Assembly: GCA_964466635.1 (NCBI GenBank)
Contig: CAYXNG010000001.1
Span: forward strand, 42,958 to 106,957
Length of the DNA: 64,000 nucleotides
Reading direction: 5' to 3'
Source: an uncultured Candidatus Peribacteria bacterium
Lineage (GTDB): Bacteria > Patescibacteriota > Gracilibacteria > Peribacterales > Peribacteraceae
Below the pieces are notes generated by a model. It made no database searches. It was given only the letters and a program-made list of their open reading frames with translations, and was not told the origin of the DNA. Position 1 is the first letter of the stretch, and every line of letters begins with the position of its first letter. Below, in pieces: positions 5,932-62,864 of this stretch. The position numbers and the translations under genes were made by a program.

Positions 5932-7485
5932 TACTGTAGAAACAACCTCCGAACGCAGACTTTTGCCAGTCCCGACCATGCTTTTTGCTGGTTCGAACAT
6001 AGCGATTTCCTTTGCATATCTTTTTTTAACCTCCTTAAGTACAGAAGGTACAAATAGTGGATCGTAATTAAGGTTTCTCCCCTGTATTTTCCAGTTCGAA
6101 CCGATGCCGCTTACAACAGCACGCTTTTGTTCGGGAGAGCCGCACGTAAGGATGTGCTGTGCATTGAGAATGAGATCGAGACTATCACTGATATTGGCAT
6201 TGGATGTCTGGCGTTCTTTTCTGGCCGTTTCTAGGTCTTCCTGAGCCGACTTCTGTTCGACTCTCAACTGATTCAGTCTTCTCTTCATGAGAGCGCGTGT
6301 ATCGGGATCTGATTCCTCTGCAATATTTTCTTCAATGGTCGTAATTTTCTTGGAAAGAACAGATAAATGCTGCTGTAGCTGTTCCTCTTTTATCGTTTCT
6401 TTAGTAGAAGCCCCCATTTGCTCAAGCTGTCGTATACCAAAGCGAATGATCTCCTCAGGGATCATATACGATTCAGCTTCTGCCATGATTTTCGTCACAA
6501 GAGCGTCAGCTGAAAGTGGCTTTTCGTTGCAGCGGATCGCACGTTTTCGGTGGGCGCAGCGGTAGTAATCAAAATCCTTTGTGATGTTCAGTGATTTAAT
6601 GTGCTTTGTCTTCCGCTCAGCAGTTATACAAGCATCACAGCCGCCGCAACGGAAAAGCCCCTTGAGAGGAAAGTTGAGGATGCGGTCACGCGTCCCTTTG
6701 CCATCCTTGAGAAATGACTGCGCCTGTTCAAACTCGGTCTGAGTAATCATCGGCTGATGACTCCCAACATGTAGCTCTCCCCTCCAACGGAACAGGCCGC
6801 AGTAAAAAGGATTTTGAAAGAGCGCGTGAAAAGTGGAAAAGGCCAGAAGCTTTCCATTTCTGTAGATCGGGCAATGCTCCTGCATATGTCGGTACAGCTG
6901 CATGGTGGAACATTGTTCATCGAGTAGCTTTCTCCATAAAGATTGGATGATCGGAAAAAGAACAGGATCAGGAAGAATGCGCTTCTGACCTTTTAATGCC
7001 TCGACTTCATTACGATAACCCATCGGGGCTTTGCAGGGCATCCACCCTTTGTCTGTCTTGCTAGTCATGCCTCGCTTCACATCGGTACTGAGCTTGCGTA
7101 CATAGTCCGTGGAGCGTCCTGTTTCAACGGAGAGCAGGATTGAGCTGTCATCGGGGTAATACGTGCGCTCAGGTGTAATGATCGCTTGGATGATGCTCTT
7201 CTGAAGCATCCACATGAGTTCGCCGGAATCTTTAGGGTTCCGGCTCAGGCGGTCAATGTTCCAACAAAGGATTACATGCGCTTCACCCCGCTTGATACGC
7301 TCGATCATGGACATGAATCCAATACGCCCAACGTCCTTTGCAGATTTCTGATCCTCGATTATATCCACGATCTCACATCCTCGATCTCTCCCTATACGAT
7401 GCAGCGCATTTATCTGATCGGGAATTGACTGGATTTGCCGCGATTTATCCTCGGTAGATTTACGAGCGTAGAGGAAGCACCTCAT
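5920..7485 (-). CDS. large serine recombinase/integrase
   Basis: 521 aa. It has an N-terminal resolvase catalytic domain (YARKSTEDKSRQ...DRLSRN), a recombinase domain, a Cys-rich zinc-ribbon (CGGCDACI...YYRCAH) and a coiled-coil tail. Confidence 0.9.
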   Translation of the reverse strand: MRCFLYARKSTEDKSRQIQSIPDQINALHRIGRDRGCEIVDIIEDQKSAKDVGRIGFMSMIERIKRGEAHVILCWNIDRLSRNPKDSGELMWMLQKSIIQAIITPERTYYPDDSSILLSVETGRSTDYVRKLSTDVKRGMTSKTDKGWMPCKAPMGYRNEVEALKGQKRILPDPVLFPIIQSLWRKLLDEQCSTMQLYRHMQEHCPIYRNGKLLAFSTFHALFQNPFYCGLFRWRGELHVGSHQPMITQTEFEQAQSFLKDGKGTRDRILNFPLKGLFRCGGCDACITAERKTKHIKSLNITKDFDYYRCAHRKRAIRCNEKPLSADALVTKIMAEAESYMIPEEIIRFGIRQLEQMGASTKETIKEEQLQQHLSVLSKKITTIEENIAEESDPDTRALMKRRLNQLRVEQKSAQEDLETARKERQTSNANISDSLDLILNAQHILTCGSPEQKRAVVSGIGSNWKIQGRNLNYDPLFVPSVLKEVKKRYAKEIAMFEPAKSMVGTGKSLRSEVVSTVWSG

Positions 7486-29323: not shown

Positions 29324-29572
29324 TTATTTTTTGATGAGTGATTCTTTTTTCTCTTTTTCCCACGTCTTCACCTCTGCCTCTCTTTTGCGCGCATCCGAAA
29401 GCGTCTCGAATTCCTCGGTATAGATAATCGACACCGGTCGTTTGCTGCGGGTGTATTTAGCGCCGGTACCATCGTTATGTTTGGCTTCGCGCTCCGCTAC
29501 GTTGATGCAGGTTCCTGCATAGAGCGAACCGTCGCTACACCGTGCTAAATAGAAGAAATGCGCCATCAACAA
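29324..29572 (-). CDS. GIY-YIG nuclease family protein (UPF0213/YhbQ-like)
   Basis: 82 aa. The segment FFYLARCSDGSLYAGTCINVAEREAKHNDGTGAKYTRSKRPVSIIYTEEF..ARKREAEVKTW matches the GIY-YIG pattern. Confidence 0.8.
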   Translation of the reverse strand: MLMAHFFYLARCSDGSLYAGTCINVAEREAKHNDGTGAKYTRSKRPVSIIYTEEFETLSDARKREAEVKTWEKEKKESLIKK

Positions 29573-29640
29573 TCAGTATAGCAGTGCGTGTCATAGTCTG
29601 GCTTTTCGTTCGTCGTATATTGTACCTTCTCCTCTTTGGT

Positions 29641-30477
29641 ATGTACCCATTTAGCACCCGCATTGTCGGCACTGTGATTGCACTCTCGACCTTTTCGGTT
29701 ACCGGGCTTATATATGCCCAGAGCAATGTTTCCTCGCCGTATACCGAGTGTGTCGCACCTCATGTTCGTCAGTATGAACAGTCGCTGCTCGACGTGAATC
29801 GCTCGTATGCCGATCAGCAGTTATCGTTCATGGAGCAGCGGGGGCAGGGGAGAATCAATGCGTGGACCATTCCGGAGCGATCACAGCGCAGTCGTGCCAT
29901 CCGCGATGTAGAGAGGGCTTATCGTGATGCGATGCGTAACTTAAACCGCTGGCTGCGCGATCAGGAACGAGCCATTCGCAACACGTTCCGCGATGCCGAG
30001 GACGCGTGTGATGATCAGTTCGATAACGATGTTGATGAAGGTGAAAGCTTCAGCAGCCAGTCCTTCTCCTCGTTCCGCTTCTCGTCCGCATCGTCATTCC
30101 AGTTCTCTTCGTTCGGATTTTCATCGTCCCGATCGAGTTCCTGGAGTACAGGCGCAATGTGCGGCAATGGACGGTGTGAACCCGGTGAAGGGTACGTGTG
30201 TCCACCGTGCGGGACGTATGGATGTGTGAATTCCTGTTACATCGGCAGTTGTCCGCAGGATTGCGGCATCACCAATCCGTACAGCAGCTCGTTGCGCTCA
30301 TCATCGCGCATAAGCTCCAGCAGAACATCGAGTTCGCGCAGCAGCAGCAGTTCATCGTGGGTGTTCTACCCCCATGAAGCATCCGGTCAGCAGACTAATA
30401 CGAATAGCTGCGCATGCGACATCGTCTGTGATCCGTCCGGCAGTCCGTGCATGGCGGTCTGTCCGAATGAGTGTTAG
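29641..30477 (+). CDS. secreted Ser-rich / Cys-rich hypothetical protein
   Basis: Signal-like N-terminus (start trimmed to the ATG at 29641), Ser-rich low-complexity tracts, and a C-terminal Cys-rich module (CGNGRCEPGEGYVCPPCGTYGCVNSC). Confidence 0.5.
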   Translation: MYPFSTRIVGTVIALSTFSVTGLIYAQSNVSSPYTECVAPHVRQYEQSLLDVNRSYADQQLSFMEQRGQGRINAWTIPERSQRSRAIRDVERAYRDAMRNLNRWLRDQERAIRNTFRDAEDACDDQFDNDVDEGESFSSQSFSSFRFSSASSFQFSSFGFSSSRSSSWSTGAMCGNGRCEPGEGYVCPPCGTYGCVNSCYIGSCPQDCGITNPYSSSLRSSSRISSSRTSSSRSSSSSSWVFYPHEASGQQTNTNSCACDIVCDPSGSPCMAVCPNEC

Positions 30478-30553
30478 TGGTGGGTCGGGCGGGACTTGAA
30501 CCCGCGACCAAAGGCTTAAAAGGCCTCTGCTCTACCGACTGAGCTACCGACCC
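30478..30553 (-). tRNA. tRNA-Lys(TTT)
   Basis: Hand-folded: acceptor GGGTCGG/CCGACCC, anticodon loop CTTTTAA, T-loop TTCAAGT, encoded CCA. Confidence 0.9.
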
Positions 30554-30609
30554 AAAATGTGAACCGAGTGAATGCTCAACTCACTCGACGAGCTTAATTG
30601 TTTTCTTTT

Positions 30610-30651
30610 CGGTTCCGCAAGCGGAACCGGGGCGACTGAGCTACCGACCCA
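30610..30651 (-). pseudogene. tRNA-Lys 5' fragment (through D-loop G18) fused to a CUUG-capped hairpin
   Basis: 19 nt at 30633-30651 are identical to 30536-30554 of the intact gene. On the tRNA strand they are followed by ccc and the hairpin cggttccgCTTGcggaaccg (30610-30629). Confidence 0.65.
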
Positions 30652-30675
30652 CAGGTTTGGCCCGCAGACTATAAA

Positions 30676-50277: not shown

Positions 50278-50320
50278 ATATGTCACGGTAGCTCAGTAGG
50301 CCTAGCCTCGCTTGCGAGGC
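50278..50320 (+). pseudogene. tRNA-Met 5' fragment (through D-loop G19) fused to a CUUG-capped hairpin
   Basis: 23 nt at 50278-50300 are identical to 50371-50393. They are followed by cctag and the hairpin gcctcgCTTGcgaggc (50305-50320). Confidence 0.65.
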
Positions 50321-50374
50321 GTTAGGAAACAACTAACCGCGACATTAGAATCTTTTACAGCTTCAAGGCCATAT

Positions 50375-50451
50375 GTCACGGTAGCTCAGTAGGTTAGAGC
50401 GCGGGACTCATAAGCCCGAGGTCGCCGGTTCAATTCCGGCCCGTGACACCA
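50375..50451 (+). tRNA. tRNA-Met(CAT), elongator-type (Ile2/lysidine not excluded)
   Basis: Hand-folded: acceptor GTCACGG/CCGTGAC with a G1-C72 pair, anticodon loop CTCATAA, T-loop TTCAATT, CCA. Confidence 0.85.
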
Positions 50452-62658: not shown

Positions 62659-62735
62659 GGGCGACTAGCTCAGCTGGTTAGAGCGCGACACTGATAATGT
62701 CGAGGTCGGCAGTTCAAGTCTGCCGTCGCCCACCA
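62659..62735 (+). tRNA. tRNA-Ile(GAT)
   Basis: Hand-folded: acceptor GGGCGAC/GTCGCCC, anticodon loop CTGATAA, T-loop TTCAAGT, CCA. Confidence 0.9.
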
Positions 62736-62753
62736 TTCACTCCCACTCAATAA

Positions 62754-62864
62754 CGACTAGCTCAGCTGGCCCTGTTTCGCTTGCGAAACAGTATCAATAA
62801 GCGCGACAACTGCGTAGCACTGATACTGTCGAGGTCGGCAGTTCAAGTCTGCCGTCGCCCACCA
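62754..62864 (+). pseudogene. tRNA-Ile-like second copy interrupted in the D-loop by a CUUG-capped hairpin insert
   Basis: It shares cgactagctcagctgg and the last 38 nt with the intact copy. It lacks the first three acceptor nucleotides. A 30-nt insert follows the GG (ccctgtttcgCTTGcgaaacagtatcaata) and about 11 extra nt lie before the anticodon loop. Confidence 0.6.

Follow-up and report, generated by a model that had tools for sequence, protein, structure and literature searches.

Hairpin-bearing modules between duplicated tRNA 5′ ends in Candidatus Peribacteria: an apparently undescribed, lineage-specific family

The known integrase sites in tRNA genes are the anticodon loop, the T-loop and the 3′ end, and the resulting repeat is the 3′ part of the tRNA (Williams 2002). 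Partial tRNA copies of another kind, the tRNA-linked repeats (TLRs), were described in E. coli (Egan and Landy 1978; Rudd 1999). They are 18-19 bp long, identical to the end of the adjacent tRNA, and lie within the operon (PMC8144298). They number one to five per locus, often in tandem, with no enzyme known and mostly no known function (PMC8144298). The TLRs are the closest described analogue of the modules reported here from Candidatus Peribacteria. The Peribacteria are tiny uncultured groundwater bacteria and form part of the Candidate Phyla Radiation (CPR).

The window analyzed was a stretch of 64,000 nt from the genome of one such bacterium (G000). At one locus on its minus strand, an intact tRNA-Lys(UUU) gene was preceded by a partial copy of its own 5′ end. 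The features of the locus were as follows.

30478-30553 (-): intact tRNA-Lys(UUU), CCA encoded (ARAGORN and Rfam, 78 bits)
30633-30651 (-): copy 1 of the direct repeat, made of T(-1) and nt 1-18 of tRNA-Lys and matching copy 2 at 19/19 positions
30554..30536 (-): copy 2 of the direct repeat, the tRNA's own -1 to +18 (nt 1-18 at 30553..30536), from the sequence
30630-30632 (-): CCC junction, from the sequence (CC, CCYA or ACC as variants in the family)
30610-30629 (-): hairpin P2, CGGTTCCG-CTTG-CGGAACCG, with 8 Watson-Crick pairs and a CTTG loop, from sequence and folding
30594-30609 (-): A-rich linker AAAAGAAAACAATTAA, from the sequence
30585-30593 (-): box GCTCGTCG, the family's GCTCGRTYC by comparison of units, degenerate in this copy
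30565-30587 (-): second hairpin, CGAGTGA-GTTGAGCAT-TCACTCG, from sequence and folding
30554-30564 (-): spacer GTTCACATTTT, directly 5′ of the tRNA, from the sequence
30668-30673 (-): -10-like hexamer TATAGT, putative tRNA promoter, 17 nt upstream of repeat copy 1

The 19-mer TGGGTCGGTAGCTCAGTCG was found twice on the minus strand, at 30651..30633 and 30554..30536, and 79 nt separated the two copies. The 18-mer GGGTCGGTAGCTCAGTCG (tRNA-Lys nt 1-18) had exactly two sites in the 928-kb, 55-contig genome, both at this locus, and hairpin P2 (30629-30610) occurred once genome-wide. By our own estimate, the chance expectation for an exact 18-mer recurring within 250 nt is ~250 x 4^-18 = ~4e-9. The duplicated tRNA-Lys start with its hairpin is real and cannot be due to chance.

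These results bore out the preliminary description of the locus, which had the tRNA-Lys start duplicated upstream and followed by CCC and a CTTG hairpin (the 19/19 copy at 30633-30651 and the hairpin at 30629-30610). The second hairpin that it placed in the spacer was present at 30587-30565. It had set the breakpoint at G18/G19, and the repeat, consisting of nt 1-18, indeed ended in the D-loop; it had also considered the intervening DNA too short for an island, in agreement with the 79 nt between the copies.

There was no ORF inside the unit. Beyond the tRNA, a 311-aa Ser/Cys-rich ORF with low-complexity stretches (29542-30477, +) stopped one base before the 3′ end of the opposite-strand tRNA-Lys, and its start was overlapped by an 82-aa GIY-YIG ORF (29324-29572, -). 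A link between the latter and the unit was not supported: the ORF lay ~0.9 kb off and a 13-mer search found no adjacent tRNA fragment. There were four GIY-YIG loci in the genome, and that on contig C26 alone was a cassette at a tRNA. At this locus (C26:6640-7140, -), a tRNA-Met gene (7012-7088, possibly initiator) was followed by an 84-aa GIY-YIG ORF and then by a partial tRNA-Met copy composed of nt 27-38, the hairpin TCCCGC-ATTC-GCGGGA and nt 47-77, a small nuclease cassette.

Hairpin P2 (30629-30610) was rejected as an intrinsic terminator, because it had no U run: next to it was AAAAGAAAA (an A run) on the tRNA strand and GGGCGACTG (GGGCGA) on the other. A weak terminator-like call at the second hairpin (30565-30587) was the sole flag raised there by the terminator scan. 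The promoter consensus scan of the locus left TATAGT (30668-30673) unflagged. The orthologous box, TATATT, lay 5′ of the repeat in the related genome G002 and directly 5′ of the tRNA in G003, which carries the empty allele.

The second hairpin seemed to be peculiar to the genus. The counterpart of its site in G013 was the uninterrupted GCTCGGTTCAC, and G002 had only GCTCGTCGGGTGA in common with it. From this comparison, the second hairpin was probably produced by a local inverted duplication of ~24 nt placed within GCTCG|GTTCAC.

When every tRNA gene of the 0.93-Mb genome was scanned, 6 of the 34 had a copy of their own start upstream, at a distance of 78-105 nt. Downstream tandem pseudo-copies were present at four more tRNAs.

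Ala-UGC: upstream copy, repeat of 18 nt
Lys-UUU: upstream copy, repeat of 18 nt (window 30478-30651, -)
Met-CAU: upstream copy, repeat of 19 nt plus 4 nt of leader (window 50278-50451, +)
Lys-CUU: upstream copy, repeat of 18 nt (contig C8)
Ser-GGA: upstream copy, repeat of 15 nt plus 5 nt of leader
Val-UAC: upstream copy, repeat of 19 nt
Ile-GAU: downstream pseudo-copy (window 62754-62863)
Thr-GGU and Thr-CGU: downstream pseudo-copies
His: downstream pseudo-copy, gene split over two contig ends

All six upstream repeats led into a hairpin rich in GC, the loop of which was mostly CTTG, and then into an A-rich stretch. The linker, of the GAAAACA/GGAAACA type, was common to the Lys-UUU, Lys-CUU and Met units. 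Each repeat matched its own tRNA, reading GGATCGG...GTTG at Lys-CUU versus GGGTCGG...GTCG at Lys-UUU. In the downstream pseudo-copies, a hairpin following G18/G19 and an A-rich tail stood in place of about nt 20-25. Perfect CTTG hairpins of at least 6 bp numbered six genome-wide, of which four lay in tRNA units, compared with 0-3 in shuffled genomes. A dispersed REP-like element was rejected on these counts.

The genome-wide search for further copies was one that the preliminary description had called for. The window locus was not solitary, because six upstream and four downstream copies existed in the same genome. A lineage-wide family of modules, common to different tRNA genes, is more than had been seen from the window locus.

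Individual members of the set had features of their own. The 23-nt repeat of the Met-CAU unit (50278-50451, +), made of ATAT and nt 1-19, was followed by CCTA and the hairpin GCCTCG-CTTG-CGAGGC. On the 3′ side of this hairpin came GTTAGGAAACA and then CCGCGACA, similar to the tRNA's own acceptor 3′ strand CCGTGACA, and the spacer was similar to the tRNA's own 3′ trailer. The tRNA-Ile(GAU) gene and its tandem pseudo-copy occupied 62659-62863 (+) of the window. The pseudo-copy was without nt 1-3, had CCC, TGTTTCG-CTTG-CGAAACA and GTATCAATAA replacing nt 20-24, and carried an 11-nt insert with GCGTAG in the anticodon arm. Both kinds of insert recurred in the His pseudo-copy with which contig C6 begins. 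The contig ends of C6, C30, C32 and C47 fell within tRNA genes or partial copies, and it is probably these tRNA repeats that fragment the assembly of this genome.

Other inserts were seen as well. A conserved module of ~66 nt (GCTCCCAGCCGCAAGCTCTCGAA...GAGTGGCTTGYGGCGCAGTCCC) lay in the T-loop of pseudo-tRNA-Thr (GGU, CGU) copies, at C43:4489-4673 of G000 and at L142 and L146 of G002; Rfam gave no match for it. A 20-nt palindrome of the type CCTGCCTGCCGNCAGGCAGG was found inside units or pseudo-tRNAs on contig C49 of the same genome, at L026 in a genome of another genus (G126) and on the metagenome contig L181, where it sat within the module's own hairpin. A 94-nt 'tRNA-Cys' called by ARAGORN on contig C7 lay within coding DNA and was a false positive.

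Twenty-eight units, whose hairpins were all distinct, were parsed automatically; this rough parse gave ~175 Watson-Crick pairs and 4 G.U, the latter from mis-parsed cases. The main hairpin class had the form stem3-GA-GYG-CTTG-CRC-GA-stem3. Among its seven distinct sequences, 100% of the cells paired, 5/7 pairs showed double changes and none was changed on one side. The tandem G.A was invariant. The observed covariation score was reached by 0/500 shuffles, in an alignment of which four rows had been padded with one G at an unpaired column for register. GNA triloops and CTTG loops are of a kind that is very stable in single-stranded DNA.

The repeat was assessed in 18 loci that had been found by the hairpin tip, without demanding a perfect repeat. 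It was perfect up to the junction in 14 of them and had 1-3 mismatches in the other four. The box was an exact inverted copy of the unit's own D-arm in five units, over 15, 10, 10, 10 and 9 nt (each p <=0.003). The Lys units retained only CTGCTC of the box, degenerate in the window copy, and the Ala units had a Lys-type box, which did not pair with the Ala acceptor strand. The Ser hairpin was made of its own tRNA's D-arm sequence.

The acceptor 3′ strand of the unit's own tRNA was present within several units (p = 0.0045 by locus-matched permutation), and in several the spacer was similar to the unit's own 3′ trailer (p = 0.024). Plain local alignment of the module with tRNA nt 19-76 was not significant for individual units; the locus-matched tests alone were significant. 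From these likenesses, each unit resembles a tandem copy of tRNA and trailer that lies upstream and has had its interior swapped for the hairpin module. Units combined direct with inverted copies of neighboring tRNA segments, a combination typical of template-switch rearrangements.

The distribution of the module was followed through the family Peribacteraceae and beyond. The strict junction TCGGTAGCTCAGTYGCC was present in 12/199 genomes of the family. tRNA-Lys nt 1-18 not followed by G19 were found in 21 of the 199, representing 14 of the 84 genera, and the next copy was always 87-100 nt away. Another 17 tRNA-Lys units came from metagenome contigs, with a spacing of 93-113 nt, two of them in tandem. 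The tRNA-Lys comparison set was thus 23 loci from the 21 genomes plus the 17 metagenome contigs, 40 loci in all.

No ORF or integrase lay between the copies in any of these 40 loci. The view that this is not a classical integrase sublocation therefore stood, with copies 87-113 nt apart that never enclosed an integrase or ORF. The comparison with related genomes, proposed with the possibility of a deletion scar in mind, showed no integrase-bearing island between the copies at the 40 loci, and hence no such scar was seen.

A junction 17-mer was searched in 185,579 species representatives, one genome per species, and gave 72 matches. The repeat-hairpin-tRNA architecture was confined to Candidatus Peribacteria, with the exception of one record, a 2-kb contig binned as Verrucomicrobiota that was closely like Peribacteria units. 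The other matches outside Peribacteria were dismissed as chance matches in coding DNA.

The hairpin tip GAGYGCTTGCRCGAG was more widespread, occurring in 40/199 family genomes and 26/84 genera. Of 30 loci read, 21 had the tip directly after a tRNA D-loop fragment (Ala, Lys, Val, Met, Arg, Thr and others), and the other 9 were chance matches in coding sequence. Separately, nine metagenome contigs (L182, L183, L189, L195, L200, L205, L210, L214 and L217) had cttatgagaaag, GGATCGGTAGCTCAGTTG and actacgaccaggcgcg in common, with no second copy nearby on any of the nine. This tRNA-Lys 5′ fragment, from an unrelated organism, may be the boundary of an element.

An empty site was found in the congener G003, where the module was absent and a tRNA-Lys(UUU) 100% identical to that of the window lay directly behind gTATATTctgcgctacctgac. 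In G002 and G001, gTATATTctgcgctacctgac stood in front of the repeat. Because the G003 promoter adjoined the tRNA without the module, the module was either an insertion or had been precisely deleted in G003. In both cases, this arrangement suggested that the whole unit is under the control of one promoter.

In G002, the survey covered all 44 tRNA loci. Upstream units were present at Lys-UUU, Ile-UAU and Thr-CGU, and the Met, Val and Ser genes examined had none, unlike those of G000. The promoter of the unit-less Val-UAC gene of G002 was clearly orthologous to that of Val-UAC in G000. At Ala-UGC of G002, the module was found in two downstream pseudo-copies. The unit at Ile-UAU was flanked by a perfect repeat of 40 nt (21 nt of leader and nt 1-19), which pointed to a recent event, and its module was ~85% identical (by eye) to that of Val-UAC in G000.

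Hairpin, box and spacer of the G002 Thr-CGU unit were of the Lys type. The block CCGTCGAGCGCTTGCGCGAGACGA was 24/24 identical between a pseudo-tRNA-Ala of G002 and Lys-CUU units from a different genus. G126 had a tandem of two and a half units, and some pseudo-copies with the module were placed behind terminators. The modules are thus common to non-orthologous tRNA genes, show turnover among the species of a genus and occur in tandem arrays.

At the RNA level, in the folds of many units, tRNA nt 1-10 and the box paired and enclosed the hairpin; the pairing used G.U wobbles, which are possible on the sense strand only. The predicted fold of the window's whole precursor had -74.9 kcal/mol (z = -3.4), with the upstream copy, instead of the tRNA's real 5′ end, paired with the acceptor 3′ strand. 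A fold in which this copy, the mimic, served as the 5′ strand was as stable or more stable in 23/24 units, by a mean of 2.4 kcal/mol. Thermodynamically, the modelled precursor is ambiguous, and co-transcriptional folding would favor the native form. The same energies gave no support to the box as an insulator that keeps the mimic off the tRNA 3′ strand, the mimic fold being as or more stable in 23/24 units. Loss of RNase P as the cause of the odd leader was ruled out, as RNase P RNA was present in this genome and in 12/12 relatives checked.

We interpreted the observed anatomy, distribution, empty site, sharing between loci and covariation as those of a non-autonomous, copy-and-paste DNA module that duplicates its target and is passively removed by RNase P, a reading that we hold to be somewhat better than even. 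The family unit is a non-coding stretch of ~60-90 nt between a direct repeat of the tRNA 5′ end and the intact gene. The repeat spans a leader of 0-21 nt through nt 15-19 of the tRNA. The module opens with CC and continues with a perfect hairpin that is rich in GC and usually has CTTG as its loop; an A-rich linker, a box of the GCTCG type and a spacer follow.

Such a module may act as a non-autonomous copy-and-paste element, or be the product of a recurrent rearrangement that is spread by recombination. Since the repeat derives from the target, the tRNA would always be rebuilt intact. Modules could pass between different tRNA genes and expand into tandem arrays, and recombination or slippage at the repeats could remove them precisely. 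As the native promoter lies just 5′ of the first repeat, transcription probably includes the module, which would form a long structured leader 5′ of the tRNA. A cut by RNase P at the true +1 would then remove the leader and leave the mature tRNA unchanged.

Counted in favor of this DNA module were its dispensability, fast turnover, transfer between loci, arrays, and a young copy with long perfect repeats. The copies behind terminators and in dead tRNA copies were counted likewise, as was the nearly wobble-free hairpin with its GNA and CTTG loops. Counted against it was that neither an enzyme nor an ORF-bearing autonomous version was seen in the 40 tRNA-Lys loci, and that the length of the duplicated target varied, from 15 to 40 nt. 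We know of no transposase that yields a duplicated target of such varying length. An element of the MITE or IS type was rejected, as no terminal inverted repeats were seen and the duplicated target, at 15-40 nt, was not fixed.

Alternatively, the unit may be a functional structured 5′ leader (a 'mini-tRNA' or pro-sequence), in which mimic, hairpin and box control the folding, processing or expression of the downstream tRNA, or from which two RNase P cuts free a stable small RNA of ~95 nt, a decoy or regulator. We regard this as possible, if rather unlikely. The promoter directly 5′ of the mimic would place the module between promoter and gene, and the stem covaried as an RNA helix might (double changes in 5/7 pairs, pairing 100%, tandem G.A invariant), with its tip kept in 26 genera. 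On the other hand, the hairpin lacked the G.U pairs usual for selected RNA helices. The conservation of tip and tandem G.A across the 26 genera, together with compensatory stem changes, fits a selected RNA and a DNA recognition site alike.

The pairing of nt 1-10 with the box, using G.U wobbles and thus functional on the sense strand alone, also favored a leader RNA, as did the fit of the box to the unit's own tRNA (p = 0.0045) and the exact inverted D-arm copy of 9-15 nt that served as box in five units. Against these points, the box of the Ala units was of Lys type and did not pair with the Ala acceptor strand, and that of the window copy was degenerate. The precursor was predicted to be bistable, and the mimic could stand in for the real 5′ strand in 23/24 units, giving the minimum-energy fold for the window copy. 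Some E. coli TLRs are processed small RNAs (PMC8144298).

The comparison of genomes weighed on the other side. The module was dispensable, being absent from most congeners with an identical tRNA, and the set of carrier tRNAs differed between two species of one genus. The same module was also found behind terminators and in dead downstream tRNA copies. The mobile-DNA and RNA-role readings are compatible; for a selfish module, the hairpin may be a necessary recognition site.

A more specific version of the RNA role is a programmable pre-tRNA 'pro-sequence', which seems improbable to us. In it, the mimic, a box complementary to D-arm or acceptor (anti-D-arm/acceptor-complement) and a protein-binding G.A/CUUG hairpin would gate the maturation of a bistable precursor; or RNase P would free a small RNA of the mini-tRNA type, specific to its tRNA, which might for instance be a decoy for nucleases that attack tRNAs. 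A module of this kind would spread among tRNA genes because it is useful.

Still less probable is a mutational footprint without any mobility. A local tandem duplication of tRNA plus trailer would be followed by a template switch (fold-back) at the D-arm that makes the interior of the upstream copy palindromic, and the similarity across loci would be convergent. The trailer-like spacers (p = 0.024) and the acceptor 3′ strand remnants of the unit's own tRNA (p = 0.0045) point to a tandem duplication on the spot and not to DNA inserted from another place. The joint presence of adjacent tRNA segments in direct and inverted copies, the Ser hairpin built from its own D-arm sequence, the window's second hairpin as a local inverted duplication, and the other small palindromes inserted in the same units all agreed with it. 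Convergence cannot, on the other hand, yield a 24/24-nt block in Ala and Lys units of different genera, nor a Lys-type box and spacer at a Thr gene, nor a Val-type box at an Ile gene.

An attL/attR-type scar, left by an integrase-borne island later deleted to ~80 nt, has in its favor that partial tRNA duplications are a classic mark of integration, and was effectively refuted as a most improbable reading, since the 5′ end and not the 3′ end was duplicated, the forty tRNA-Lys loci had 87-113 nt between the copies and no integrase, and the remnant architecture at ten tRNAs of one genome would require ten identical deletions.

A partial copy of a tRNA gene is routinely taken for the scar of an integration. 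In this case, a different process would be at work across a whole lineage, one directed at the 5′ end and D-loop, by which the tRNA gene is rebuilt and a conserved hairpin stays behind. A mobile module would represent an unknown tRNA-gene-directed mechanism of insertion or repair in genome-reduced CPR bacteria, and a module acting as RNA would be a tRNA-specific leader of a new kind. On the practical side, the units break MAG assemblies at tRNA genes, and they can mislead the annotation of tRNAs and genomic islands.

In Rfam 15, the tRNA alone was matched in the window region (E up to 10) and on five related loci (E up to 1). Full-text literature searches found no description of the module, and the Peribacteria genome paper PMC4736985 is silent on it. 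The units thus apparently form an undescribed, lineage-specific family of 5′-linked, hairpin-bearing tRNA-linked modules.

Each known system shared some of its features with the family. As in the attL/attR duplications of phages, ICEs and genomic islands, a partial direct repeat of a tRNA flanked foreign DNA and the gene remained intact. Unlike in these, the break was in the D-loop, the 5′ part was repeated, the insert measured 60-90 nt and there was no recombinase gene. The window's unit differed from a homing-endonuclease (GIY-YIG) cassette in that no nuclease ORF lay between the intact tRNA and the partial copy.

REP/BIME, Rickettsia palindromic elements and MITEs are likewise short, structured and non-coding, are present several times in a genome, are gained and lost among relatives, and keep their stems by compensatory change. 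Unlike these small palindromic repeats, the module was not dispersed, and its hairpin was confined to sites next to tRNA 5′ fragments. Terminal inverted repeats were also missing, and in place of a short target duplication of constant size there was a duplicated target of 15-40 nt that always ended in the D-loop.

The tRNA-like domain of tmRNA offered a likeness of layout only. In both, an acceptor 5′ strand and a D-loop analogue are followed by a helix that replaces the 3′ half of the D-arm and the anticodon arm. Unlike tmRNA, the units had no mRNA-like region and no pseudoknots, and those upstream were without T-arm and CCA. A module-bearing pseudo-tRNA-Ala (L109, G002:C4:15350-16501) gave a sub-threshold tmRNA match (29.5 bits vs a cut-off of 47) and also matched permuted tmRNA. 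It is likely that its acceptor 5′ strand, insert, T-arm and CCA jointly mimic the tmRNA layout.

The nearest likeness was with the E. coli TLRs. The repeat of the window, like a TLR, was short (18 nt, or 19 with position -1) and identical to its tRNA; its place between a promoter-like box and the gene would put it in the same operon. A TLR repeats the 3′ end and lies downstream, whereas the Peribacteria unit repeats the 5′ end and lies upstream, between promoter and gene. The layout was thus mirrored, with no sequence similarity. Unlike TLRs, the Peribacteria units also had a hairpin that is conserved and covaries, and some of them contained the D-arm as an inverted copy. A 3′ tRNA-linked repeat of the E. 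coli kind was seen on contig C38 (3704-4000, +), where tRNA-Trp was followed by two tandem units of 129 nt, each ending in the last 20 nt of the tRNA. If mobile, the Peribacteria modules would provide a mirror-image model for the unexplained origin of the tRNA-linked repeats of E. coli.
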